Shown here: positions 5,889 through 25,600 of the stretch, in pieces
Position numbering within the stretch: the first letter of the stretch is position 1
How the letters are laid out: the number at the start of each line of letters is the position of its first letter
Virus record (IMG/VR): IMGVR_UViG_3300045988_057942
Direction: 5' to 3' (one strand)
DNA length: 64,000 nt
From: a virus
Notes under the pieces: model-generated
What the model was told of the DNA's origin: nothing
Seen by the model: the letters and a program-made list of their open reading frames with translations, nothing else
The model's database searches: none
Program-made: the position numbers and the translations under genes

Positions 5889-8800
5889 ATGGCTATATAT
5901 CAAGGAGATATTGGAATACATGATATTAAACTTGGTAGTATAGATGTATTTGAAATATATCAAGGTTCTAAACTTGTTTATCCTGAGAATACTGAAGTTA
6001 CTGTTACGTTTAAATTGAATGTTTCCGGAACTGTTACTATTAATGGTTATACTCCTGTTATAAGTGAAAATAATACTAAATTTGTATTTACTATTCCTGT
6101 TAAGACTGATTATACTGCTAATATTACTGCTGAACATTATAAATCTCAAACTATTAGTGGTAACAGTGGTTATTTACCTATAACTCATAATGTAGAATTA
6201 GAATGGGAACAAGAATTTATATCTTATACTGTTACTTTTCCTACTGATGGAGTTAAAGTTTTATTTGATGGAATAGAAAAAGGAGTTATAACTAATGGTA
6301 AGTTAGTTGTATTAATTGATGATATAGAAGCTAAAGATAGTTATACTGTTACATTTGAAGGTAGTAAAGCTAGTACATATGATACTAGTGGATTAAAAGT
6401 AGTAGATAGTAGTATAGCTGCAACTGGTGGTAGTTATGATTTAAAACTTTCTACTAGTTCTGTTAAGACTGCTTATACACGAACTGACTATGCATCCTCC
6501 ACGGGGAGTATAACCAAGGGTTCTACTTATACTGGTTCTTGGATTGAAACTGTTGTTAATCTTACTGCTAGTTTTACTAGTTCTACTACTTTAGGTTCTA
6601 TAAGTAATAATGTACTAACTATTGCTAATAATGAATCTACTAATACTAAAAGTGGAACTTTAACTGTTATATTTACTTTAGAAAATAAACAAACTAAAGA
6701 AGTTAGTGCTGCTTTAAATCAAGCTGCTGGAGCTAAAGTTTATACTAATTGGGTATTAGATTTACAAACTGATGGAACTAGTGTTGAAGCTAAAGGTGGT
6801 ACTAGAACAGTTACAGCTAATATTGCTCGTAGAACTTATAAATGGAATAATACTGGTACTGTTTATAGTGAAACTGCTACTCCTACTCTTAGTATTAGTG
6901 GTAGTGCTAGTCTTAGTGGAAATCAAATAAAATTTACATCAAACGAGAGCGTTTCAGCCCGTTCTGCGGTACTTACTGCTAGTTATGTAGGATTATCCAA
7001 AACGATTACGATAACTCAATCAGCAGGCTCAAAAGTGTATTCAGCGTGGTCTGCATGGGCTGTTTCTATCTCGGCAAGTACGCAAACGATAGGCGCAAGT
7101 GGAGGAACATCAACAATAACTACTAGTGCTAGTCGTTCTAGAACTTGGACTTGGAATGGAGTTGGAACTACTCATACTGATACTGAAACAGGTACACCTA
7201 CACTTAGTGGTAGTGCTGGTGGATTTACTTTAAGTGGTAAAACTGTTACTGCTAGTAACAATACTACAACAAATAGTCGTAGTATAACTATTACTGCTAC
7301 TAGCAATAATGTTTCTAAGTCTATTACTATAACACAATCTGCTGGTGCTAAAGTTTATGGTAATTGGTCTGCTTGGACTGTTAATATTAGTGCTGATAAA
7401 ACTAGTATTGGAGCAACAGGTGGAACAGCTACTATATCAACTAGTGCTAGTAGAACTAGAAGTTATACATGGAATGGTGTTGCCGGTTCTGGTGGTACAG
7501 AAACTGGAAATGGTACTCCAACGTTAAGTAAAGTTAGTGGAAGTGGTAATTGGACTAGTCCTAAAGTTACTTATGGAAATAATACTAGCACAAGTGGTAA
7601 ATCAACTGTTATTCGTGCTACTATTGATTCAACTACTAAAGATATAACTATTAGCCAATCTGCTGGAGCTAAACAATATAGTACTTGGTCTGCATGGACA
7701 GTTAATATTTCTAATAGTGGAAATATTGCTGCTAGTGGAGGTAGTTCAAATATAACTACTTCTGCAAGTAGAACAAGAACTTGGACGTGGAACGGAGTTA
7801 ATGGAAGTGGTGGAACTGAAACAGGAACTGGAACTCCTACTCTTAGTAAAATTAGTGGTGCTGGTTCATTTGCTAGTAATAAAGTAACTTATGATAATAA
7901 TACTTCTACAAGTGCTAGAAGTACAGTTATTAGAGCTACAATGGATTCTGTAACTAAAGATACTACTGTAACTCAAAATGCTGGTTCTAAAACTTATAGT
8001 AGTTGGGGAGCATGGTCTATTAGTTTAAGTGCTAATGTAACAACTATTGCTGCTGCTGGTGGAAATGCTACATTATCTACTTCTGCTACTAGAAGTCGTA
8101 CTTGGCAATGGAATGGTACAGGAACAACTTATACTGAAAATGCTAGTGGTTCTCCAACATTAAGTAAAGTTAATGGTGCTGCTTCTTTAAGTGGTTCTAC
8201 TGTTAGTTATGGTAATAATACTTCTACTAGTTCTCGTAGTTCTGTATTTAGAGCAACAATAGATAGTACTACTAAAGATATAACTATTAGTCAATCTGCT
8301 GGGGCTAGAGTATATGGAAGTTGGTCTGGTTGGACTGTAAGTTGTAGTGCTAGTAATTATAAAGTTTGGGCAGGAGGTGATTCAGTAACTATTTATAGTA
8401 GTGCTTCAAGAAATAGAACTTGGACTTGGAATGGTGTTGCAGGTTCTGGTGGCACTGAGTCTGATAATGCTACTCCTACTATTTCTGTTACAAGTGGTGT
8501 TGGAGTTTTAAGTGGTAATACTTTAACTTTTAGTAATAACACATCTCCTGATGCTAGAACAACTCGAGTTACTGCTAATTATAACGGAGTTACTGATTAT
8601 TGTGATATTATGCAATATGGTGGTAATAAAGTTGCTGGAAGTTGGACATCTTGGCAAGTAACTATATCTGCTAGTCCTATGAATATTGCTGCTGCTGGCG
8701 GTAGTTCTACTATTACTTGTAATGCTGTTCGTACTAGAAATTATACTTGGAATGGGGTGGGTACTACTTATACTGAAACTGAAAATGGTAGTCCAACTTT

Positions 8801-12705: not shown

Positions 12706-12741
12706 TGTAGTTCAAACTACAAGTATTAATCTATTTTTTTT
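12706..12741 (+). terminator. weak terminator-like hairpin + T-run after ORF 11544-12656
   Basis: TGTAGTT..AACTACA stem followed by a T8 run 10 nt downstream. Confidence 0.25.
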
Positions 12742-13563: not shown

Positions 13564-14079
13564 ATGATACCTGTTAATCAATTTATACTAGGTGGTAGTG
13601 ACCCTTTACTATACCCTGGTGAAAAAATGACTAATAGCATTGATGAACAAATTGCTTTTCTTCAAAGTCAAAAACAAGCAATTAATGAAGCTTATCGTCG
13701 TAATGCTATTCCTAATGCAAATAATGGTACAACTCAAAATCAGCAAGTTCCAACTCAAGGAATTTGGGACGCTATTGATGCTGAAATTGCACCACTTACA
13801 CAAGAACAACAAAATATGCTTCTTAGTAACCAAGATTATGTAAATAACTATAATGCTTTACAAAGTATGGTTCAAGCAGAAGTTCTTAATTTAGTTAGAG
13901 GAAAAATCGAAGCTAGTGCTGATGGCAAACATTTACTTGAAGAACAACTTAAACTTGTTAAGTTACTTAAAAGTAAAATTGTTGAAGTTACTAACAAAGA
14001 AATGGAATTGTTTAAAGCTTTTAAAGAAGCTAGTAAAACTAATCCTAATTTAACTTATGAAGAATTTTTAAAGAAGTAA
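13564..14079 (+). CDS. hypothetical protein
   Basis: 171 aa ORF. Confidence 0.4.
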   Translation: MIPVNQFILGGSDPLLYPGEKMTNSIDEQIAFLQSQKQAINEAYRRNAIPNANNGTTQNQQVPTQGIWDAIDAEIAPLTQEQQNMLLSNQDYVNNYNALQSMVQAEVLNLVRGKIEASADGKHLLEEQLKLVKLLKSKIVEVTNKEMELFKAFKEASKTNPNLTYEEFLKK

Positions 14080-14083
14080 TATT

Positions 14084-14470
14084 ATGGTTGAAATTGGTAA
14101 TGTTAAAGAGGTTATTAAAGATTATATTATTAAACAATTAGTATCTATGGGTGAAAGTTCTCCAGCTATAAGACTTTTAATTCCTTTAGCTAAAAGAGCA
14201 ATTACTAATAATATTAATAGTTTTGATAAGTTCTTGAAGCCTATTGCAGATAAAGATGGCATGATTGATATTGAAGGTATATTTGATGAAGAAATGGAAA
14301 TTATTAATAATATTGATAATTTTGATTTTGATATACCTTTTATTGGTGGCGGTAATATTTCTAAAGGTATTATATCTCTTGAAGTTCCTTATGTGAATAA
14401 AATTGTTGCTCTTAATCAAACTGATTTAGAAGTTTTAAAAGAATCATTAATCAGTTTAAAAACAAAGTAA
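14084..14470 (+). CDS. hypothetical protein
   Basis: 128 aa ORF, tightly packed (GTAATATTATG junction). Confidence 0.4.
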   Translation: MVEIGNVKEVIKDYIIKQLVSMGESSPAIRLLIPLAKRAITNNINSFDKFLKPIADKDGMIDIEGIFDEEMEIINNIDNFDFDIPFIGGGNISKGIISLEVPYVNKIVALNQTDLEVLKESLISLKTK

Positions 14471-14474
14471 TATT

Positions 14475-15050
14475 ATGAGAGAAATGCCTTACATTCAACC
14501 TTACCATGTTGGTAATCGTCGTGGCGGTAATCAAAATATTCTTGATGAATTTCGTGAATTTCTTGATGCACGTGGAGGACGAGGCGGTCGTGGTGGTAGA
14601 GGTGGCATGAGAAATCGTATTGGCTATGATACTTACGATACTTATGGTCGCTCTACTAATAAAAATGACCGAGAAGAAAAGATTTTAACTATGCTTATGA
14701 GCGGTGGATATAATGACGATGGCTATCATTTTAATGAGTATGAAGCTAAAGAAGTTGTAGAACAAATGTATCATGTTAAAGACAATAAGAAATATATTGG
14801 TGAAAAATATGATATGAATAAAGCTCATGAGATTTGTGAACGCTATAAAGAAGTATTACCTAATGATGTTGAACCTTGTGATGTTTATGTTGCAATTAAC
14901 GCTCAATATCATGATTATGCTAAATTATTTGAAGAATGGTTTGGTGGTAATATAGATAATAAAGTGTTTGAAAGTGCTATTACATTTTGGTTTAAAGATG
15001 TAGATTTTGATGGTGATAAAGTGTGGGAATATTTTCACATGAATAACTAA
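14475..15050 (+). CDS. hypothetical protein with RGG repeats
   Basis: 191 aa. Contains RGGRGGRGGRGG. Confidence 0.4.
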   Translation: MREMPYIQPYHVGNRRGGNQNILDEFREFLDARGGRGGRGGRGGMRNRIGYDTYDTYGRSTNKNDREEKILTMLMSGGYNDDGYHFNEYEAKEVVEQMYHVKDNKKYIGEKYDMNKAHEICERYKEVLPNDVEPCDVYVAINAQYHDYAKLFEEWFGGNIDNKVFESAITFWFKDVDFDGDKVWEYFHMNN

Positions 15051-15070
15051 TCATTATTGTAAAACTATAA

Positions 15071-15108
15071 AAGGGAATTATCTTCGGATAGTTCCCTTTT
15101 TTATTTAT
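15071..15108 (+). terminator. rho-independent terminator-like hairpin
   Basis: AAAGGGAATTATC-TTCG-GATAGTTCCCTTTTTTATTT: 12-bp stem, TTCG loop, T-run. Confidence 0.6.
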
Positions 15109-15120
15109 CTAAATTTTAGT

Positions 15121-15450
15121 ATGGACAAATTTATTGATGCAATTGTAGATGGAATCCTTAGTAATTTTGATTTTGGATTTATGTTTATTGTTAATGTTCT
15201 AACTTATATTATTATTAAAACTATTGATTATTTTAATGGTGATAATAAAGTTCCTACTTGGCAAAAAAGATGTGTATTAGTTATAAGTATTGCTGCTATG
15301 ATTGGTATTTATATTACAGCTGGTTATGATAATACTATTATGCTTGTTAATAGTGCTATTCTTGCTCCTGTGTTTTGGAGTTGGGTTGTTAGTCCTATTC
15401 TAAAGAAACTTGGAGTTGGTTATAAAGATATTGATAATACTATTGGTTAA
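15121..15450 (+). CDS. small membrane protein (3 predicted TM helices; holin-like?)
   Basis: 109 aa with three hydrophobic segments. The holin assignment is inference only. Confidence 0.3.
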   Translation: MDKFIDAIVDGILSNFDFGFMFIVNVLTYIIIKTIDYFNGDNKVPTWQKRCVLVISIAAMIGIYITAGYDNTIMLVNSAILAPVFWSWVVSPILKKLGVGYKDIDNTIG

Positions 15451-15469
15451 GATTGTGTGATGATTATTA

Positions 15470-15553
15470 GCTAGGTTTGACTGACTAATTCAAGCCTGCT
15501 CCATCCTCTACGGGGAGTATAGCTTGCCGAATTTGGCTAGTTTTAAGCCTAGC
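15470..15553 (+). repeat. intergenic GC-element copy flanked by imperfect inverted repeats (MITE-like unit / structured RNA)
   Basis: GCTAGGT...GCCTAGC outer 7-bp stem and CAAGC...GCTTG inner stem enclose the core CTCCATCCTCTACGGGGAGTATAGC (15499-15523). Confidence 0.5.
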
Positions 15554-15658
15554 TGATTAGTTATACACGATTGAATAAAAGTCTTACTGTAAGCCTAAAA
15601 AGTGGCTCTATGGACGTACATAAATATTTACAATATTAAAATTTAAAATAGTAAAGTT

Positions 15659-16000
15659 ATGAGAGTTATTAAGACTAAACATTTTCCTTTTGGTGGTTAT
15701 AAAGCTATTAATCTTTTTGGTATTGTATTTACTAAAGGAGAATTAAGTAATAGAGAACTTAATCATGAAGCTATTCATACAGAACAAATGAAAGAAATGT
15801 TATATATCTTTTTCTATATATGGTATGGTATTGAATATCTTATTATAAGACTATTTCATATTAAACAACATGATGCTTATAAAGATGTAAGTTTTGAAGA
15901 AGAAGCTCATATTAATGATGATAATCTTAATTATATTAGTGAACGTAAACATTATACTTGGACTAAATATCTAGGTATTAATAGTTCTAAAACTGCTTAA
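15659..16000 (+). CDS. small hypothetical protein with HEXXH motif (HEAIH) and a hydrophobic segment
   Basis: 113 aa with NHEAIHTEQ. A possible mini zinc-metallopeptidase, but this is weak. Confidence 0.3.
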   Translation: MRVIKTKHFPFGGYKAINLFGIVFTKGELSNRELNHEAIHTEQMKEMLYIFFYIWYGIEYLIIRLFHIKQHDAYKDVSFEEEAHINDDNLNYISERKHYTWTKYLGINSSKTA

Positions 16001-16051
16001 TTAAAAAATGTTAATAATATTGTTAAACTACTTGTTATTAATAATATAATT

Positions 16052-16059
16052 TATATTTG
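16052..16059 (+). promoter_or_regulatory. possible Bacteroidetes -7 promoter element TATATTTG (TAnnTTTG) upstream of ORF 16082
   Basis: Exact TAnnTTTG match ~22 nt upstream of the ATG. No strong -33 element. Confidence 0.2.
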
Positions 16060-16081
16060 TAACAAACTAAATTCTAAAGAT

Positions 16082-16597
16082 ATGGAAGATGATAAAAGAG
16101 TTAATTATAAGTTAGATGCTATTAATAAACTTATTAATAATCTTAAACTTAGTATTTCTGGTAATAAAGAACATGATGAGCTTGGAGAAAATAATGTTAT
16201 AGTTAATCTTGATGAGATTAGTCAAAAGATTACTGAATTACATGAAATGGTTAAAGCTGAATTTGATGAGTTTGAAAATCAACATAAAAGTGAATCAGAT
16301 GAAACTCAAACTCTTCTTAATAGTCGTTTTGATAAAGTTGATGCTAAATTAGATAGTATTAAAGCTGCTGTTGATAGTATGAAAACTACTATTGGTAATA
16401 AACTTGATACTGTTAATTCTACTATTAATAAAGCAAATACAGATATAGTTGCTGCGATTAATGCTATGAAAACTAGTAATGATACTAAAAACGATGCTAT
16501 AATTACTGCTCTTCAAGGACTTGTAACTAAAGTTAATCGAAATACTAGTAATATTAATTCTCTTAACGGTCGAGTTGATGCTCTAGAACAAGCTTAA
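16082..16597 (+). CDS. coiled-coil protein
   Basis: 171 aa, heptad-rich. Confidence 0.4.
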   Translation: MEDDKRVNYKLDAINKLINNLKLSISGNKEHDELGENNVIVNLDEISQKITELHEMVKAEFDEFENQHKSESDETQTLLNSRFDKVDAKLDSIKAAVDSMKTTIGNKLDTVNSTINKANTDIVAAINAMKTSNDTKNDAIITALQGLVTKVNRNTSNINSLNGRVDALEQA

Positions 16598-16598
16598 C

Positions 16599-18059
16599 AT
16601 GAATTTTAATTTAGTAGAAATGTATAATGGCTTGTTAAGATTTAATAAGCATATACTAAATGAACTTGCAGAAGGACTTAAACATCTACCTAATTTAGAT
16701 GGAGTATCTAAAGGAGATAGTTTAATTATTAATGAACAAGGTAATCCAGCTTGGGGTTCTGCTGCATTTATTCCTACTTTTGAAAATGCTGCTTATGGTA
16801 TTGAATGGACTAAAGATGATAATGATATAATCAGAATTGGTAATGCTAAATTTCATAGAGAACTTCCTATTCAAAATAGACTTAAAGGTTGTGTCTATAA
16901 TGAAAAGAAAATCAGTTATTTCCTTAATCCTACGGGTTGGGCTAAACCTCTTGAAAATGGTTTTGTTCCTCCTCTTGATGGAAGTGATGGCGATGTTGGG
17001 GTAAGAGTTCCAGAGTTTTATATGTGCGTTAAAGATACTGGTACTAAATATCAACTTTGGATAAGTGATTTTAATATTGATGGAACATTTACTAGAGTTC
17101 ATCCTTTTATTATAAGTCATACTAAAACTATGACTAGAACTAGAGAAGATGGTAAAGAAGAAGTATTTAGTGCTTGCATTAAACATGATAATACCAGATA
17201 TTTAGGAGGAAATAAAAGTTCTTCTGTTGTTGCTACTAAATTACAAGGTAGACCTAGAACTGGTATTAATTATGATAAAGCAAATGAATTTTGTGCTAAT
17301 CGCGGTGATTGGATTACAATGATTGATTATCTTGAATATTGTGCTTTACAGGCTCTTTGTTATATTGAGTATGCTAATTTTGATAATCAAGCTGCATTAA
17401 ATACTAATTTAACTAGTGAAGGATTTAAACAAGGAGGTCTTGGTGCTGGTGTTACAAATTTAAATTGGGATAGATGGGCAGCTTTTAATGGTAATAATCC
17501 TATTGTACAAACTTATTGGACTGCTGAACATAATATTGGTAATGGTAGTACAAATGGTGATCATTATGAACTAGGAAATTATAATGCAGATGGAAGTAAT
17601 TTAAATACTTATCCTGCTGTTTATCGTGGTATTCTAAATTTCTTTGGTGATATATGGACATTTGTTAGAGATGTAGCTATTATTAATAAAGATACAAATT
17701 ATAATAGTGTTTATCTTCTTAAAAAAGGTGTTAATCATTCTGATATTACAATAGATAATATTCAAGATAAATGTTATTTTATAGGTGACCAAGCTAATAC
17801 TAATAATTTTATTACTGAATTTGATTTTAGATTTGGTCCTTATTTTGTTCCTAATAAAGTTGGAACTAATAAAAAAGCTGACTATAATTGGAAAAGAGGT
17901 AATGATGGACAAGATACAGATAAAGCTGTTCGTGTGCTTCTGCTTGGCGGTGACGCTCTTAACGGTTCTGCGGCTGGCTCTGGTTACTTTGGTTCTCATT
18001 GGGTTCGGTCGGCTTCTGATGCTGGTGTCGGCTTCTTTACCACAGTTAAGCTTGATTAA
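16599..18059 (+). CDS. DGR target protein (receptor-binding/tail protein with C-terminal variable region, FGE/C-type-lectin-like fold)
   Basis: 486 aa. The 3' end (17934-18038) is the VR matching the downstream TR. NYDKANEFCANRGDWITMIDYLEYCALQA resembles the FGE-sulfatase/CLec fold of DGR targets. Confidence 0.7.
   Translation: MNFNLVEMYNGLLRFNKHILNELAEGLKHLPNLDGVSKGDSLIINEQGNPAWGSAAFIPTFENAAYGIEWTKDDNDIIRIGNAKFHRELPIQNRLKGCVYNEKKISYFLNPTGWAKPLENGFVPPLDGSDGDVGVRVPEFYMCVKDTGTKYQLWISDFNIDGTFTRVHPFIISHTKTMTRTREDGKEEVFSACIKHDNTRYLGGNKSSSVVATKLQGRPRTGINYDKANEFCANRGDWITMIDYLEYCALQALCYIEYANFDNQAALNTNLTSEGFKQGGLGAGVTNLNWDRWAAFNGNNPIVQTYWTAEHNIGNGSTNGDHYELGNYNADGSNLNTYPAVYRGILNFFGDIWTFVRDVAIINKDTNYNSVYLLKKGVNHSDITIDNIQDKCYFIGDQANTNNFITEFDFRFGPYFVPNKVGTNKKADYNWKRGNDGQDTDKAVRVLLLGGDALNGSAAGSGYFGSHWVRSASDAGVGFFTTVKLD
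17934..18038 (+). repeat. DGR variable repeat (VR), 105 bp
   Basis: Aligns base-for-base with TR 18204-18308. The 22 mismatches all fall at TR adenines. In-frame codons encode VLLLGGDALNGSAAGSGYFGSHWVRSASDAGVGFF. Confidence 0.85.
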
Positions 18060-18071
18060 ATAAGTCCACGT

Positions 18072-18149
18072 GGAACTGTTGCTAGGAGTAGTTGGTTAAT
18101 TAATTTGTTTTCTGTTTTTGTATTTCTCGATACTACTCCTGCAACAGTT
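18072..18149 (+). other. long inverted repeat/hairpin immediately downstream of VR (GGAACTGTTGCTAGGAGTAGT ... ACTACTCCTGCAACAGTT)
   Basis: ~19-bp stem with one bulge. Comparable to the hairpin/cruciform needed for DGR target recognition. It may also terminate the target gene. Confidence 0.5.
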
Positions 18150-18203
18150 TATTATAATAATATTAAAGGTTATATTTCTTAAGATGATTGACATTTAGAT
18201 ACA

Positions 18204-18308
18204 GTGCTTCTGCTTAGCAGTAACGCTAATAACAGTTCTAAAGCTAGCTCTAGTAACTTTAATTCTAATTGAGTTCAGTCAGATTCTAATGCTAATGTCG
18301 GCTTCTTT
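18204..18308 (+). repeat. DGR template repeat (TR), 105 bp, non-coding
   Basis: AAC/AAT-rich copy of the VR. 28 adenines, of which 22 are substituted in the VR. Contains an in-frame TGA, so it is not translated. Confidence 0.85.
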
Positions 18309-18458
18309 TATATAATTCCTAAAACTAATAAATATAAGATTAATATAAATATTATTTTGGGAAGTATAACCTTACCTCTTGGTAAAAGATAACGTTATTT
18401 AGAAACTAAAAGTGTTGGTAGTGATATTTACGAAGGCTCTTATATAAATTATATAAAT

Positions 18459-19409
18459 ATGAAAAGATATAGTGGTTTACATGATAAACTATGTACTATT
18501 GAAAATATTGAAGTTGCTGATGATAATGCAAGAAAGAATAAGAATAAGAAATATGGTATTAATAAACATGATAAAAATAGACAATATGAAAATGAAGATT
18601 TGGTAGATAAATTATTTAATCTTAAATATAAAACTTCTAAATATAGTCTATATAAAATATATGAACCAAAAGAACGTATTATTTATAGACTTCCTTATTA
18701 TCCAGATAGAATTGCTCATCATGCTATAATGAATGTTGTAAAAGATATTTGGACAAAAAGTTTTATTCATAATACATATAGTTGTATTGAAGGTAGAGGT
18801 ATTCATCTTTGTGCAAATAATCTTAAAAGAGATTTAAGAAAATATCCTAACGAAACTACATATTGTCTTAAATTAGATATTAGAAAATTTTATCCTAGTA
18901 TTCCTCATGATGGTCTTAAGAAATGTATTAGAAAGAAAATTAAAGATAAAGATTTTCTAATGATTCTTGATGAAATTATTGATTCTACTGATAATGTTCG
19001 TGATATTTCTTCTAAATTAACTAATAAGATTGGAATTGGAGTTCCTATTGGTAATTATCTATCTCAATACTTTGCTAATCTTTATCTTAGCGAACTTGAC
19101 CATTTATGTAAAGAAGAACTTAAATGTAAATTCTATTATCGTTATGCTGATGATATAGTTATTCTAAGTGATAATAAAGATTTTCTTCATAAAGTTCTTA
19201 TTTATATTAAATTATATGTTCATACTATTGGATTGAAAGTTAAAGATAATTATCAAATATATCCTGTTAATAGTAGAGGAATTAATTTTGTTGGTTATGT
19301 ATTTTATCATACTCATACTCTAATTAGAAAATCTATTAAGTATAAAATTATAAAACTAGTAAATAGTTATTTAAATAGAGAAATCGATAAAAAAAAGAAT
19401 TTAAAGTGA
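18459..19409 (+). CDS. DGR reverse transcriptase
   Basis: 316 aa. RT motifs LKLDIRKFYPSI, GVPIGNYLSQYFANLYL and YYRYADDIVIL (YxDD). Confidence 0.85.
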   Translation: MKRYSGLHDKLCTIENIEVADDNARKNKNKKYGINKHDKNRQYENEDLVDKLFNLKYKTSKYSLYKIYEPKERIIYRLPYYPDRIAHHAIMNVVKDIWTKSFIHNTYSCIEGRGIHLCANNLKRDLRKYPNETTYCLKLDIRKFYPSIPHDGLKKCIRKKIKDKDFLMILDEIIDSTDNVRDISSKLTNKIGIGVPIGNYLSQYFANLYLSELDHLCKEELKCKFYYRYADDIVILSDNKDFLHKVLIYIKLYVHTIGLKVKDNYQIYPVNSRGINFVGYVFYHTHTLIRKSIKYKIIKLVNSYLNREIDKKKNLK

Positions 19410-19411
19410 GA

Positions 19412-19756
19412 ATGTGTGCTTATTATGGATGGCTTAAACACGCTGATGCTAAAAATCTTCTTTATAAAATTCAAAGTCTTACAGGTGTCAGATATTCTAA
19501 TTGGAATGGTAAAAGAACTAATATTACTAAATATTATGGTAAATACGTTAGAATAATTCAAATTATTAATTATGCTAAGTATTTTAGAATTAATTTTATT
19601 AGAAATGGTGAAGCTTATTACGCTGATAGTAGAGATAAAACTCTATTTTATTCTATACATAGATTTAATCATTTTCCTATTAATTTTAAAATTATTAAAT
19701 ATGACTGGCGTATTTATGCTAAAAATAGAAAAGAAAAAGTTAAACTTAAAACATAA
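19412..19756 (+). CDS. small highly basic protein, possible DGR accessory (Avd-like) factor
   Basis: ~114 aa, K/R/Y-rich. Overlaps the RT stop. An Avd-like role is inferred from charge, size and location only. Confidence 0.3.
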   Translation: MCAYYGWLKHADAKNLLYKIQSLTGVRYSNWNGKRTNITKYYGKYVRIIQIINYAKYFRINFIRNGEAYYADSRDKTLFYSIHRFNHFPINFKIIKYDWRIYAKNRKEKVKLKT

Positions 19757-19762
19757 TATATT

Positions 19763-20044
19763 ATGACTAAAGATAAACTTAAAGATGATATTATTAGAAC
19801 TATATGCTGTTTAAATAGTGATATATCTAATAAAGATAGAAAATTATTAATTGAATTATTGAATTCTATTGTTGATTATACTAATAATACTGAACTTGAA
19901 CAAGATGTTAAAGTTATAACACAAAAACATAACGAATTAGCTGAAACAGTTAATGAACTTAAAACTAAAGTTGAAACATATTCTGATAAGATTAATGAAC
20001 TTGAACAAAGAGTTCGTCAATTAGAAAACGCAAGTCAATCTTAA
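19763..20044 (+). CDS. small coiled-coil protein
   Basis: 93 aa ORF. Confidence 0.35.
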   Translation: MTKDKLKDDIIRTICCLNSDISNKDRKLLIELLNSIVDYTNNTELEQDVKVITQKHNELAETVNELKTKVETYSDKINELEQRVRQLENASQS

Positions 20045-20045
20045 C

Positions 20046-20750
20046 ATGGCTAGTCTTAATCAATTAGTTAGTGAATTTGCTCATGCTGTTGGCAATCCTA
20101 ATAGTATTCCTCTTAGACGTAATCTTCGATATGCTATTCTTCATGGTCGTAATGAACTAATTCGTAAAAGTTATGAAAATCATAAATATGTTGATAAAGG
20201 TTTGCAACAACGTATTCGTGTTTCTATTATTAATGTTCCTGATGGTGACCTATATAATAGTCAAACTCTTGGGCTTCCTGCAATTAAACGTACTAAACAA
20301 GAAGTTCCAAAGCCAGTTAGACTTATTAATAACTTACCTTTCCAATCAATTAGAACTACCGGACATTCTGGGATAGAAATACCTTTTGCTAAAGAAGCTA
20401 GTGCTAAGTTTTATCATTATCTTGCAGGTATGTGTAATCTTCCTGTTTATGATTATATTAACGGTTATATTTATTTCTTTAGTAATAATAAAGATTGGTT
20501 TCAAAATATAGGTTCTATTATTATTGAATCTCCATTTGAAATTCCTTATCTTGTTCCTACCGAAACTGTTGAAAAAGCTAAAGATGTAAATTATGACCCT
20601 ATTGATGATGAAGCTAAATACGATGATGATGAATTTCTTATTCCTGAAGATATGATTGGGGCTCTTAAAGAAATTGTATTTAAACGTAATCTTATTGAAG
20701 TTCCTCGTCAAACAAATGAAACTCCTATTGATAATTTTGTAACTAGATAA
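20046..20750 (+). CDS. hypothetical protein
   Basis: 234 aa ORF. Confidence 0.4.
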   Translation: MASLNQLVSEFAHAVGNPNSIPLRRNLRYAILHGRNELIRKSYENHKYVDKGLQQRIRVSIINVPDGDLYNSQTLGLPAIKRTKQEVPKPVRLINNLPFQSIRTTGHSGIEIPFAKEASAKFYHYLAGMCNLPVYDYINGYIYFFSNNKDWFQNIGSIIIESPFEIPYLVPTETVEKAKDVNYDPIDDEAKYDDDEFLIPEDMIGALKEIVFKRNLIEVPRQTNETPIDNFVTR

Positions 20751-20753
20751 ATT

Positions 20754-21716
20754 ATGATTAAAGATATAGATATTAGTCATTATTATAAAAAGTTTATTGA
20801 AACTTCTAATGACGATATGGCAAAATATAATAAAGAACTTGAACTTATAAATAAGATGAAAGCTGATTGTCGTGCTTATATTAAAAGTAAAAATCAAGTT
20901 ATTAAAGATGATTTAAAAATAAATCTTAATGAATATGGGTTTCAATTTCTTAATGATAATGTTGAATTAATTAATAAGTTAGAACAATTAATTAATAATC
21001 GACTTAGTTATACAGTTGGAGAAAGACGTATTGTTCTTCTCCAACTTTTGCGTTATTGTAATTTAGCTAAAAAAGCAAACGATTATATTATTGCTCTTAA
21101 ACTTGCTACAAGACGTTCTGAATTAAGTCTTTCTGATTATAAAAAGTATATTCATAGATATTATAGTTATGGTGTTCATAAATGTGTTCTTGAAGGCTAT
21201 GCTTATCATTTTAAATATGAAATTGGTGACTTAGTTATTAATTTCTGGAGATATAGAGATAAACCTAGAGATACTTATGTTGATTGGAACGCTACTAGAC
21301 TTAAGAAACAAGAAATTATTGATGCTGGTCTTAAACCTTATGATAAAGAAGAAGCAGAGATATATAAAATTCGTGGACTTAAATATGATGGTATTCCTTA
21401 TGTAGTTTATAAAACTAATAAAGAGTTTTATGAAATACAACTTATTAATAATGGAACTCATAGTTATAGTGCTATTAAATTTAAGTATGCTAATTATATT
21501 AATAGAGAGCTTCGTGGTAAAGATGCTAAACAACTTAATTCTGAATGTAAAACTGTTGATGATATTTTTAATCTTAAATTAGGATTAAGAAGTAAACTTC
21601 TTGTTTATCTTGAACGAGAACCTAATGCTCCATTTAAATATATTAGAAATGTTAATCAACAAAAGTATGAACGTGGAGCACATAATAATGGTAATAAAAC
21701 TAGATATAAAAACTAA
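20754..21716 (+). CDS. hypothetical protein
   Basis: 320 aa ORF. Confidence 0.4.
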   Translation: MIKDIDISHYYKKFIETSNDDMAKYNKELELINKMKADCRAYIKSKNQVIKDDLKINLNEYGFQFLNDNVELINKLEQLINNRLSYTVGERRIVLLQLLRYCNLAKKANDYIIALKLATRRSELSLSDYKKYIHRYYSYGVHKCVLEGYAYHFKYEIGDLVINFWRYRDKPRDTYVDWNATRLKKQEIIDAGLKPYDKEEAEIYKIRGLKYDGIPYVVYKTNKEFYEIQLINNGTHSYSAIKFKYANYINRELRGKDAKQLNSECKTVDDIFNLKLGLRSKLLVYLEREPNAPFKYIRNVNQQKYERGAHNNGNKTRYKN

Positions 21717-21720
21717 TATT

Positions 21721-22617
21721 ATGGCAAATAATAAAACGATTACGATAGAACATATAATTGGTAAACTTGATAATGATTTCAATCCTGATGGAAGTGATTG
21801 GATTCCTAGAGTTCCTGCTTGGTGTGTTGATGCTATGAATGAACTTAAAGTTCTTCGTAAAGTTGATAAGAAAATGAAACTAACCGTCATTAATAAGATA
21901 GCTAAAAGTAAATGTTGTCTTATTGATGACGGTCTTAAAGTATATGATAGTAATGGTTGTGAAGTACCTAGAGCTGATACTAGTAAATATAGATGTGGTG
22001 ATACTGAATCTGCTCCATCCTCTACGGGGGGTCAAGCGGAGGACGAAAGTCCGGAGCGTGCTACTAATAAAGACTATCTTGGCATGCCCGATGATTGTTG
22101 TCCTAATGGTTCTAGAACTAGAGAAGTTATTGATACTGGTAAAGTAGGATGTAATCCTGTTGTTTATACAGTTCATAATAATACTGAATGTCCAAGATGT
22201 CAGCATGAAGTTCATTCTCATTGTCAGACCCCCCGTGGAGGATATGATAAGTCAAATCATAATTATATTCTTATTGGAGGTAATACTATTGAACTTAATT
22301 TTAATGATACTTGTATAACAGTTGTTTATAAAGATATTGAAACTCAATATAGTGATAATTATCATTGTGAGATTCCTGTTATACCTGCTAATGGTAAATT
22401 AATTCAAGGTCTTACTTATTATTGTATGGCTCGTATGCTTATGAGAGGATATAAACATCCTGTGTTTAATCTTTCTGCTAGTCAATATGGAACTAATCCT
22501 TTCTATCTATGGGAAAGTATGAAGAAAGATATTAAGACTAGTGTTTTGTTAGATGAACAAAGTGATGATGATAGTGGTTGGAATGAGTTCTTTTATAACT
22601 TTACTTTTCCTAAATAA
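21721..22617 (+). CDS. hypothetical protein carrying a Cys/His-rich segment bounded by two inverted GC elements
   Basis: Start taken at the ATG at 21721, right after the previous stop. The track ORF's 5' extension from 21601 overlaps the upstream gene. The segment 22013-22246 encodes CCPNG..C..CPRCQHEVHSHC. Confidence 0.4.
   Translation: MANNKTITIEHIIGKLDNDFNPDGSDWIPRVPAWCVDAMNELKVLRKVDKKMKLTVINKIAKSKCCLIDDGLKVYDSNGCEVPRADTSKYRCGDTESAPSSTGGQAEDESPERATNKDYLGMPDDCCPNGSRTREVIDTGKVGCNPVVYTVHNNTECPRCQHEVHSHCQTPRGGYDKSNHNYILIGGNTIELNFNDTCITVVYKDIETQYSDNYHCEIPVIPANGKLIQGLTYYCMARMLMRGYKHPVFNLSASQYGTNPFYLWESMKKDIKTSVLLDEQSDDDSGWNEFFYNFTFPK
22013..22058 (+). repeat. GC-element copy (forward) with GGACGAAAGTCC hairpin module
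   Basis: CTCCATCCTCTACGGGGGGTCAAGCGGAGGACGAAAGTCCGGAGCG. In-frame (APSSTGGQAEDESPERA). Confidence 0.7.
22227..22246 (-). repeat. GC-element copy (reverse), inverted partner of 22013
   Basis: GACCCCCCGTGGAGGATATG (..TPRGGYD..). Confidence 0.7.
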
Positions 22618-22619
22618 TT

Positions 22620-25600
22620 ATGAATATACAAAAGAAACTTAGTCTTAATAAACATCCGGGTGATTGTGTACCTTATTCATTAATTGCTGCTAAAAATGTT
22701 AAAGTGAGTAATGATGATAGGATGATTGTTAATGAAGAAGGGCTTGAAGATTGTAAAGCAATTGCCAATGCTATTCATGAAGATGGTATTAATAATTTTA
22801 AAATAGTTGGTGTTATTCCTACTAGTACTGAACTTATTTTATTTGTTATTAATGTAGATAATAATGAATCTTATATTTATAGATATAATGAAGAATCTTC
22901 TAGTTGTTATAGAGCAAACAGTAATTGGAAATATAACGGCGGTAAGATTAAAGGAACATATACATATAATGTTAAAAATCATCTTATAATTGCTGTTGCC
23001 GAAAGTGATGCTTCTGTTGATGTTCCTCTTAAAACTATTAATATTGATTTAGATTCTGGAAGTCCTGATACTGAAATGTCTATTATTCCTCAAGTAACTT
23101 TACCCACAGTTAGTAATTTAAATTATGTTAGTGGAGCTGCTTATAAAGGATTTTATTTTATGTTTATTAGATATAAAATAGATAAGACTAATTATACTAA
23201 ATGGTATAGTATTGGATTTCCTATTTTTAATGATGTTATAATTCCACAAGTTATTAATAAAGTTTGTTTTCGTAAAGAGTTTGTTTATGATCCTAAAGAT
23301 GACCCTAATGGATATTGCTATGGAAATAGTGATTCTTTTAGTGATTCTAAAGATATATGTAATCAAACTTTTGAAGTAAGTATTACTGGTGGTCGTTCAG
23401 GACTTTATCAATTAGGACTTATTATATGTAAAAAAGATAGTACGCAAGCTTTTAGAACTGATGATTTAAATAGTAATATTTTTAAGTTTAGTAGAGATGT
23501 ACTTGTGGAATATAATATAGCAGATTTAACTACTGATTATTATAATTATTATAATGTTGGTAACATTATTAATTATAAAAATAGAATATATATTGCTAAT
23601 TATGATGAAAAAAGTGATAATGATAATAGAACTTTGAGTGATGGTAAAACATTAGAAGAATCTGTTAATGATATTGTTATTAAACTTAGAAATAAATCTG
23701 TTAATGCTTATTATAACAGTTATAATGTTGTACATGCAGTTAGTGAAAAAGGACCTTATTTTAAAATGGCTAGTCTTGGATTTACTGGAACTGTAGATTA
23801 TGAAATAGCTGATTATACTAAACTATTTAATAATAATCAATATCCTTTTCGTACTTTTAAAACTCTTCTTAATGAAACTGTTATTCAAGGTATTGCTGCT
23901 CATGAATATTTAAAAGTTAATTATAATACTGTAATAAAAGTAGGTTCTAAAGGCGGAGCTAATATTAAAGAATATTTAGCATGTAATTGTTTTATTATTC
24001 CTACTAGTTATAAGTATGAAAATAATATATCTAGTTATAGTTTACCTAGTGAAGTTAAAATTGTTTGTTATACTTATAATGGTGTTGGATTTACAGAAGA
24101 TGCTGTATTTACTAGCGGAGTTATAATATTTGGAACTGCTCAATTTGATATTGATAATTGTAAAATGAGAATTACTCATAGTGTAATTGATCCTTCTTAT
24201 GATTTTAATGAACGTAAAAAGAATGATACTCTTATTCCTGGAGAAGTATATAATTTCTTTATTCATTTTGTTGATAAGTATGGTGATGCTAGTAGAGGAT
24301 ATAAATTATCTAATAAAGATAAATATATAAATGATGTTATAAATGATAATTCTCATTGTACTATAATAACTGTTGATTGGATTAATGGTACTGCTGGTAC
24401 TATTCCTTATTGGGTTGTAATTAGTGGAACTATTCCAATATCTAGTATTAGTTCTAATGTTAAACAATATATTGCTGATAGTAAAATTGTAGTTTATACT
24501 GCTGAACCTATTAATAATCCTTTAACTAATATTTTACTTAATAGTGCTGGCGAATTAGAAGCAACTAATAGAGATGATTTATATACTCTTATTTCTAATT
24601 ATTTTATAGACTATCAAGATAAAGATAAATATAATGATTTATATGTTTATCAAGTTATAAATAGTGGTAGCTATACTCCAACTAGTAATCAAATTATTTA
24701 TGGCAATTATGATAATGAAGCTAAATTTGGTTATTATGAAAATATTAATGGTGATGAACTATTTAGAATACCAGATTTAATATTTAAATCTGAATCTATT
24801 GGCGGAGAACATACTAGAGGTTTTGTATATAATATGAATGATACCTTTAATAAGTTCTATATTAATGTTAATATTGATAATAATCTTTGGAATAAAATAA
24901 AAGAATTAGGTTATGTTGGTTGGTTTGTTAGTTATGAAAAAGTAGAACCTATTACTAGATATACAGGATTATTAACTAGAAAAGATTTTGCTAATATAGC
25001 TAGTAATGTTACATGGCAAGAATCTAATTATGCTGCTAAGCCAGGTTTTGTTTCTAATAATTATACTAGTGATAAATGTTATCTATATAGTGGTAGATTT
25101 GACATTGATGATACTATTAAATATGATTTTAATATAATTCGTATTGATGGTAAATGTACATTTGAACCGTTTAGAGAAAAATCTGATGTTGTTGATATGG
25201 TTGTTAATACTACTTATCCATATAGTTATAATATGCCTGTTATAGGAGTAATAAGTAGAAATGTATATAAACCTATTAATAATTATAAATTAGTAGTAGC
25301 TGATAGTATCGCAGATGATAGAGCTGGAAAAGGTACAGCATTAGAAATGGATGATTATAAAGAACTTTCTTTAGATGCTGAAACTATGTTTCTTGCTACT
25401 GTTCTTAATTGTACTAGAAATATTTATATTAATAAAGAAAAAGAACTTATAAGACTTAATGATGTTCGTTATTCTAGTGGAACATATTCTATTGAACATG
25501 GATATAATGGTAGAATGACATATGATGGAGTATTAGTATATAATGATAATAGAGTTATTATGAATGAAGGAGATTATAGATTATATTCACCTGATAATAC

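Follow-up and report, generated by a model that had tools for sequence, protein, structure and literature searches.

In this work we examine a diversity-generating retroelement (DGR) carried by a stretch of viral DNA of 64,000 nucleotides (IMG/VR record IMGVR_UViG_3300045988_057942), which is referred to as the window. The cassette lies on the plus strand at positions 16599-19756 and is composed of a tail-protein target gene with a variable repeat (VR) at its 3' end, an inverted repeat, a template repeat (TR), a structured spacer RNA and a reverse transcriptase (RT). The coordinates given for its open reading frames (ORFs) in the original prediction (16599, 18459-19409 and an end at 19756) were all correct. 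We consider it highly probable that the locus is the known DGR of genus-I crAssphages (Carjivirus; as in crAssphage LMMB), an element devoid of the accessory protein Avd, and that the ORF at 19406-19756 is the C-terminus of its RT.

Repeats, target gene and reverse transcriptase

The target gene (16599-18059) encodes a protein of 486 amino acids (aa), named 'tail-collar fiber protein' in GenBank and homologous to gp54 of p-crAssphage. According to a fold search, its C-terminal half adopts a C-type-lectin/FGE-type fold that displays the VR, and a sequence search against the PDB returned no chain with detectable similarity to the target. The proposal that the DGR diversifies the C-terminal lectin-fold domain of a tail protein was right in kind. 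TaqVP, the variable protein of the Thermus aquaticus DGR (PDB 5vf4), is among the closest known systems to this target. The crAssphage protein differs from it in being part of a phage tail module and in bearing an extra region at its N-terminus (about residues 1-220).

The VR (17934-18038) is in frame with the target gene, covers its codons 446-480 and ends 21 nt before the stop codon. A repeat search located the second copy, the TR, at 18204-18308. Both copies are 105 nt long, with a spacing of 270 nt and 79% identity. The TR is intergenic and non-coding, is rich in AAY codons and contains 28 adenines and an in-frame TGA; its translation is VLLLSSNANNSSKASSSNFNSN*VQSDSNANVGFF. Counted base by base, the VR and the TR differ at 22 positions, all of them TR adenines (22/28 A), and there are no mismatches at other bases. 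From TR to VR, the substitutions are A>G in 16 cases, A>C in 4 and A>T in 2. Our recount reproduces the figures that had been reported for this repeat. The downstream copy had been taken as the template, and this is also correct; it is AAY-rich, carries the in-frame TGA and is near-invariant among relatives. VR and TR share their last 13 nt without any difference and diverge immediately 3' of them. These 13 nt form an A-free, relatively G+C-rich block, TGTCGGCTTCTTT, in the position of the initiation of mutagenic homing (IMH) site (18026-18038, with the TR copy at 18296-18308). Morozova et al. (PMC7290462) call IMH and IMH* identical in the crAssphage element. No further VR-like copies matching the TR at non-A positions were found on either strand of the 64-kb window.

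The same signature was found at population level. We compared the window with 12 related loci (13 genomes in total; compared loci carry L numbers), and 11 of these 12 relatives carry a TR. In nine of the 11 the TR is identical to that of the window, the exceptions being L006 and L010. All 13 VRs differ from each other, and this variation is located almost only at columns where the TR has an adenine. When the VR of each relative is compared with its own TR, 20-25 mismatches are found at adenine columns and 0-3 at other columns. Moreover, L006 and L010 have private non-A substitutions in their TRs, and these reappear in the VR of the same genome, which is direct evidence that sequence was transferred from TR to VR after the substitutions arose. 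We also drew 95 distinct VR peptides from target homologs in the protein database. Ten VR positions (452, 454, 455, 458, 463, 465, 467, 472, 474 and 476) show entropies of 2.3-3.5 bits and correspond exactly to the eight AAY codons, the one AAA codon and the one GAT codon of the TR, while the entropy of VR codons without a TR adenine does not exceed 1.5 bits. The test proposed with the original prediction, namely that the VR should vary only at codons with TR adenines, was therefore passed both by the 13 genomes and by the 95 peptides. Together with the placement of the mismatches and the adjacent DGR-type RT, this population signature confirms a DGR of the adenine-specific kind.

Seven TR adenines behave in a different way. 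They are found in codons whose VR counterpart is near-invariant among the 95 VRs and differs from the residue encoded by the TR. AGC or AGT (Ser) in the TR becomes Gly in the VR at 450, 451, 456, 460 and 462, the TGA stop becomes Trp468 and CAG (Gln) becomes Arg470. Across the 13 genomes, 90 of the 91 bases at these scaffold sites are G, and the VR bases at the 21 free adenine sites are G (37%), A (30%), C (18%) and T (15%). As each of the seven sites must become G, approximately 1 in 1000 full rewrites (0.37^7) would restore the scaffold, if the whole VR is rewritten. Faithful copying of the TGA of the TR results in a nonsense codon. Scaffold positions of this A>G type also occur in a distant relative (L013, 3089-3195 and 3248-3354), and the pattern is thus a trait of the lineage. 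The usual DGR rule places TR adenines in AAY codons, and the crAssphage TR departs from it by these scaffold adenines. One could speculate that the scaffold adenines, including the stop codon, make most rewrites lethal and in this way help to explain why crAssphage populations lose the RT so frequently.

The RT follows at 18459-19409. This ORF of 316 aa comprises fingers, palm and most of the thumb, and ends at a premature TGA created by a frameshift. It contains the motifs YADD and IGNYLSQ ([LIV]GxxxSQ), and matches Pfam RVT_1 (E 3e-18) and also PHROG 1423. When the two parts of the RT are joined, the best relative in the PDB is the RT of the Bordetella phage DGR (8ub7, E 2e-39), with the RTs of group II introns and retrons far behind. 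Thus, the RT with YADD that had been announced at these positions is indeed present. The 8ub7 alignment spans residues 2-339 of the joined RT, crossing the junction at residue ~313 into the ORF at 19406-19756.

Relation to the published crAssphage element

A Megablast search with positions 14000-24000 against phage records gave as best matches relatives of the prototypical crAssphage (Carjivirus), at 95-97% identity. CrAssphage LMMB (MT006214) covers 100% of this query with 96.5% nucleotide identity over 10 kb and the same gene order, and its GenBank record annotates the locus as 'tail-collar fiber protein' followed by 'reverse transcriptase'. The DGR of LMMB was published by Morozova et al. 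(2020, Viruses 12:573, PMC7290462). According to that paper, the LMMB cassette has a 486-aa target, 35 VR codons, 28 TR adenines and a lineage-3 RT. Its architecture is given there as TG-VR(IMH)-TR(IMH*)-RT, without avd, where TG is the target gene. The authors found the cassette complete in 15 of 91 genus-I genomes, and incomplete in 73%. The element is therefore already known, and its observation in the window is a correct rediscovery. The novelty implied in the original prediction does not hold, as the element has been in the literature since 2020 (PMC7290462).

The window and LMMB share the 486-aa tail-collar-fiber target, the 105-nt VR and TR, the 28 TR adenines, the TG-VR-TR-RT order and the absence of avd. 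In both, the cassette sits between the tail needle gene and a conserved downstream ORF, and the TR is base-for-base identical. They differ in the RT, which is one ORF of 431 aa in LMMB and is split by the insertion in a run of eight A's (A8) in the window. They also differ in the VR, since LMMB has 21 mismatches at A and two at other bases, whereas the window has 22 and none. As far as the consulted portions of PMC7290462 extend, they contain no description of an extra C-terminal domain in the RT, of the RT-17-like spacer RNA, of the inverted repeat and the compensatory change in its stem or of the seven scaffold adenines.

DGRs have been reported in several other crAss-like families, and there the RTs are often fragmented as well. 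The DGR of the Epsilon phages crAssE-Sib (PMC11054128) has the same target-VR-TR-RT cassette, with a receptor-binding protein similar to TaqVP/TvpA and an RT that is often fragmented or deleted within the genus. Its RT carries GxxxSP, unlike the window RT, which has the canonical GxxxSQ (IGNYLSQ). The DGR of Bordetella phage BPP-1 (Mtd, Avd, bRT and the TR-Sp RNA) is arranged as TG-avd-TR-RT, whereas the crAssphage element is TG-TR-RT without Avd. With respect to BPP-1, the crAssphage RT has an additional C-terminal domain of ~85 aa, and the crAssphage TR carries an in-frame stop and adenines in scaffold codons.

The reference p-crAssphage genome (BK010471, our L002) has no DGR. It retains the target gene with its VR, as well as the inverted repeat and a piece of ~20 nt at the 3' end of the RT ORF, and lacks the region equivalent to ~18160-19735 (~1.58 kb, comprising TR, spacer and nearly all of the RT; L002 4423-4680 against window 18039-19760). 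As BK010471 keeps both the VR and a 3' remnant of the RT, the DGR-less state is explained by deletion of an ancestral cassette that left an orphan VR. Some proteins of public crAssphage assemblies (P0367, P0368, P0369 and P0383) carry the C-terminal domain of the RT fused directly to target residues, to the region of the stem-loop or to the N-terminus of the RT. These chimeric ORFs are the products of several independent deletions, all keeping the 3' end of the RT. The layout of the cassette is shared by loci of the wider clade, in which the automatic VR/TR calls are imprecise and were used only to note this layout.

The split reading frame of the RT

Seven relatives, among them LMMB, encode the RT as a single ORF of 431 aa that spans both ORFs of the window. 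In the window, the C-terminal part is found in the -1 frame (19397-19756), where an ORF of 116 aa is called from a GTG at 19406. It contains the end of the thumb (CAYYGWLKHADAKNLL), a conserved beta domain of ~85 aa (about 19490-19700) and a basic tail. The LMMB RT, one CDS of 431 aa, reads ...NSYLNREIDRKEFKVRMCAYYGWLKHADAKNLL..., and the same residues are divided in the window between frame 0, ...EIDKKKNLK*, and frame -1, KKEFKVRMCAYYGW.... The cause is the A8 run at 19389-19396, which is a +2 insertion with respect to the relatives and shifts the RT frame; its zero-frame phasing is A_AAA_AAG. In 11 of 11 relatives this site has 6 nt (AAAAAA, AGAAAA, AAGAAA or AAAAGA) and is in frame. Because of the A8 run, the RT frame is broken into 316 + 116 aa instead of 431 aa, and the DGR of the window cannot be called complete, as it had been. 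The insertion thereby separates the last ~115 residues of the RT, the thumb end and a clade-specific beta domain, into a second ORF. The clade to which this RT belongs, formed by DGR RTs of 400-430 aa, bears this conserved additional C-terminal domain (~85 aa), which is modelled as a beta domain and could be OB-like.

To place the insertion in context, we surveyed the indels in ~58 kb of the window aligned to LMMB. Twenty-two were found, 12 of them multiples of three. The remaining ones include two frame-restoring pairs, and the others are intergenic or lie in doubtful short ORFs, so the A8 insertion is the only clearly ORF-breaking indel. Just one other homopolymer indel was observed, a T-run one base longer at position 12734, which is intergenic. 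Given this single intergenic case and the lack of any other broken gene, the assembly is not one prone to homopolymer errors. Judging from these sequence comparisons, the A8 frameshift is probably a genuine mutation. The most likely interpretation is that the insertion is real, recent and inactivating, and of a kind that is common in this phage population. A VR with no mismatches outside adenines would fit a rewrite that took place shortly before the RT was mutated.

RT-inactivating lesions are also seen in relatives, namely a TGG>TGA change at ~4470 in L008, a stop after aa 151 in L010 and a frameshift after aa 47 in L011. In these three (of 11 TR-bearing relatives) the VR/TR pairs are still DGR-like. 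Non-A mismatches between VR and TR number 0-2 in genomes with an intact RT and 0-3 in those with a broken RT, without a clear separation. We had considered the non-A count as a clock of RT inactivation and rejected it on account of this overlap.

A less probable explanation, which nevertheless has to be taken seriously, is that the A8 run arose from an error in sequencing or assembling the homopolymer, and that the real phage has an intact RT of 431-432 aa and a fully functional DGR. Such an error would agree with the reading frame of all 11 relatives at this site, with a VR free of non-A mismatches, which is what an active element should show, and with a search of public assemblies, where the exact truncated allele of 316 aa is on record in no other. 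However, an error of +2 is less usual than one of +/-1, and the ~58 kb aligned to LMMB offer only the intergenic T-run as a further homopolymer indel, with no other gene broken. Besides, broken RTs are common among these phages.

The A8 run could instead be a functional recoding site, where a -1 shift of the ribosome on A_AAA_AAG, or slippage of transcription on the A-run, would produce a small amount of full-length RT and thus throttle a costly mutator. A_AAA_AAG is the slippery heptamer of Escherichia coli dnaX, and runs of eight or more A's are prone to slippage by RNA polymerase. The phasing in the window coincides exactly with this heptamer, and slipping to -1 gives back ...EIDKKKEFKVRMCAYYGW..., with one Lys more than the relatives have. 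A low dose of RT could also be advantageous, given that the scaffold would not survive ~99.9% of full rewrites. Nevertheless, we regard recoding as improbable. The A8 allele is unique to the window among 12 genomes and is recorded nowhere else, hence it is not conserved, and no frameshift-stimulating RNA structure was found 3' of the A-run (z +0.16).

The original prediction described a complete DGR with a basic accessory ORF at 19406-19756, that is, a separate protein of the Avd type. The ORF is basic, is located 3' of the RT and has about the size of Avd. We find this reading very hard to sustain, as the relatives encode one RT of 431 aa and the 8ub7 alignment crosses the junction, so that the ORF corresponds to the C-terminal quarter of the RT itself. 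Its identity as Avd was ruled out, because its model is a beta domain and not the helical bundle of Avd. When the RT extension alone was searched exhaustively with HMMER, only 67 cluster representatives were retrieved among 1.84 billion proteins, and those short matches that we looked at turned out to be fragments of the RT or chimeras produced by deletions (a target N-terminus fused to an RT C-terminus, for instance). Scans with Pfam, NCBIfam and PHROG detected no Avd in the neighbouring ORFs or in the ORF at 19406-19756. Avd is present in most but not all DGRs and is not obligatory for membership in this class.

Two further Avd candidates were discarded. A 93-aa ORF at 19763-20044 lies outside the cassette and gives weak matches of the coiled-coil type, and its homolog with 69% identity (gp53) is conserved in the DGR-less reference. 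ORFs of 124-125 aa overlapping the 3' end of the RT in the wider clade show no Avd signature and are unrelated to the ORFs of the window. As an observation apart, this 124-125-aa ORF is conserved at that position in L019 (4696-5070), L020 (4699-5076) and L023 (4699-5076), has no Pfam match and has no counterpart in the window.

Finally, that VR and TR are an ordinary duplication diverged by point mutation, without any retroelement activity, is supported just by the existence of a repeat and can practically be dismissed, considering that one copy has A at 22 of 22 mismatches (hypergeometric P = 1.5e-17 for 28 A columns), that 12 other genomes show the same asymmetry, with differing VRs and one TR, and that a DGR-type RT adjoins the repeats.

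RNA structures and a possible mechanism

An inverted repeat is found 3' of the stop codon of the target (18074-18149). Its arms (18074-18091 and 18133-18149) form 17 bp with a 1-nt bulge and enclose a 41-nt loop in the centroid of the DNA fold. It is kept in 12 of 12 relatives, the DGR-less reference included. The pair C18082-G18141 is replaced by T-A in L003, L004, L008 and L018, a compensatory change. The canonical DGR target hairpin (Guo et al. 2011) has a GC-rich stem of 7-10 bp and a 4-nt GRNA loop, and is located 4-34 bp after the VR; in BPP-1 it is a GC-rich stem of 8 bp with a GAAA loop. The crAssphage repeat starts 36 nt past the VR, with its 17 bp and its loop of 41 nt, and does not conform to that hairpin. 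Consequently, of the 'hairpin' listed in the original prediction, a conserved inverted repeat does exist and its equivalence with the canonical DGR target hairpin does not hold. A structural role for the inverted repeat is likely, and its identity as the DGR hairpin is unproven. Inverted repeats of nine nt are common in the AT-rich window (89 instances). Past the VR, neither a canonical intrinsic terminator nor a hairpin with a GRNA loop was detected; the region contains just the long inverted repeat, which is its sole strong structure, and a palindrome of 10 nt, TCCACGTGGA.

The spacer between TR and RT is 150 nt long. At 18316-18363, 8 nt after the TR, the centroid of the RNA fold contains an AU-rich stem-loop, weakly suggested by the z score of the region (-1.2). 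In its 5' arm, A>G changes in L006, L009, L010 and L011 keep the pairing as G-U. The stem-loop occupies the position of the Avd-binding stem-loop in DGRs that contain Avd.

The rest of the spacer, at 18368-18456, resembles the RT-17 RNA (Rfam RF03020), a family found next to RT genes. The match covers model positions 1-95 of 95 with 29.8 bits (E 7e-4 in a local search) and ends 3 nt before the ATG of the RT. It consists of a P1 hairpin within 18370-18387 and a conserved UGUUGGUAG core at 18413-18421, followed by GAA. RF03020 has the same elements, the CCUUnCCUCUUGGnAAAA hairpin and the UGUUGGUAG...CGAA core, immediately upstream of the RT start. Nine other loci have an RT-17-like element in the same place, adjoining the RT on its 5' side. 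The RF03020 score is 41.1 bits in L012, above the threshold, and 27-36 bits in L009, L010, L013, L014, L015, L017, L022 and L023. P1 shows G-C to A-U covariation, and the outer stem covaries as well (AGCUG/CGGCU, AACCG/CGGUU, AGGG/CCCU, AGGA/UCCU and GGGG/CUCU). In L020 a long hairpin is inserted at a variable position of the RNA. An alignment of the spacers with MAFFT and RNAalifold recovered the first hairpin only, and the rest was obtained by motif-anchored analysis. A limited literature search for the RT-17 motif by name gave no match.

In the Bordetella element, the synthesis of cDNA is primed by an RNA segment 3' of the TR, to which bRT-Avd binds. In terms of position, the RT-17-like RNA is the crAssphage counterpart of that TR-downstream segment, and its function could be similar. 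It is also conceivable, although we hold this rather doubtful, that the C-terminal beta domain of the RT and the RT-17-type spacer RNA act as a built-in replacement of Avd, making the RT a self-sufficient single protein.

From the homology with the Bordetella phage DGR we infer the following mechanism. The RT would bind the TR-spacer RNA and reverse-transcribe it with misincorporation opposite the adenines of the template. The resulting cDNA would replace the VR, recoding ten surface codons of the C-type-lectin-fold domain at the tip of the tail protein, and the recoded VR would change receptor specificity. In the phage of the window, the presumed mutation of the RT would have interrupted this process recently.

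Several points weigh against parts of this picture. The authors of PMC7290462 regard the functionality of the crAssphage DGR as unproven, and retrohoming has never been shown experimentally. The seven required A-to-G changes are awkward for a simple model in which the full VR is rewritten. The recency of DGR activity is not established, because the counts of non-A mismatches overlap between genomes with intact and broken RTs. The lack of non-A mismatches in the VR of the window would fit an intact, active RT equally well, and at sequence level the A-run could still be a homopolymer assembly error. Regarding the spacer RNA, the score of the window is below the RF03020 gathering score of 40.4 bits, and the outer stem in crAssphage has only ~3 AU-rich pairs, a reduction that accounts for the low score.

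As a discovery, the element of the window matters little. Its value lies in a corrected annotation, namely a cassette with no accessory gene and a split RT, recently inactivated or doubtful rather than complete. The C-terminal domain of the RT, the covarying RT-17-like RNA and the scaffold adenines may be of interest to understand how Avd-less DGRs work. If it were true that a single-protein DGR RT operates with a compact RNA partner, such a pair would be attractive for tools of targeted mutagenesis in vivo.

Some minor observations were made around the cassette. The ORF at 20046-20750 matches Pfam PF25702 ('CrAss_Ring_2, phage tail ring protein 2', E 5e-57), and the GenBank label of its homolog in relatives, 'IHF subunit / histone-like protein', seems to be outdated. 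At 14475-15050, an ORF of 191 aa combines an N-terminal stretch of RGG repeats with a C-terminal DUF7841 (E 1e-37). Outside the window, two group I intron matches were found in L022, an unrelated phage contig, at 6370-6602 (57.4 bits) and 6799-6878 (36.2 bits), a few kb downstream of its related DGR.

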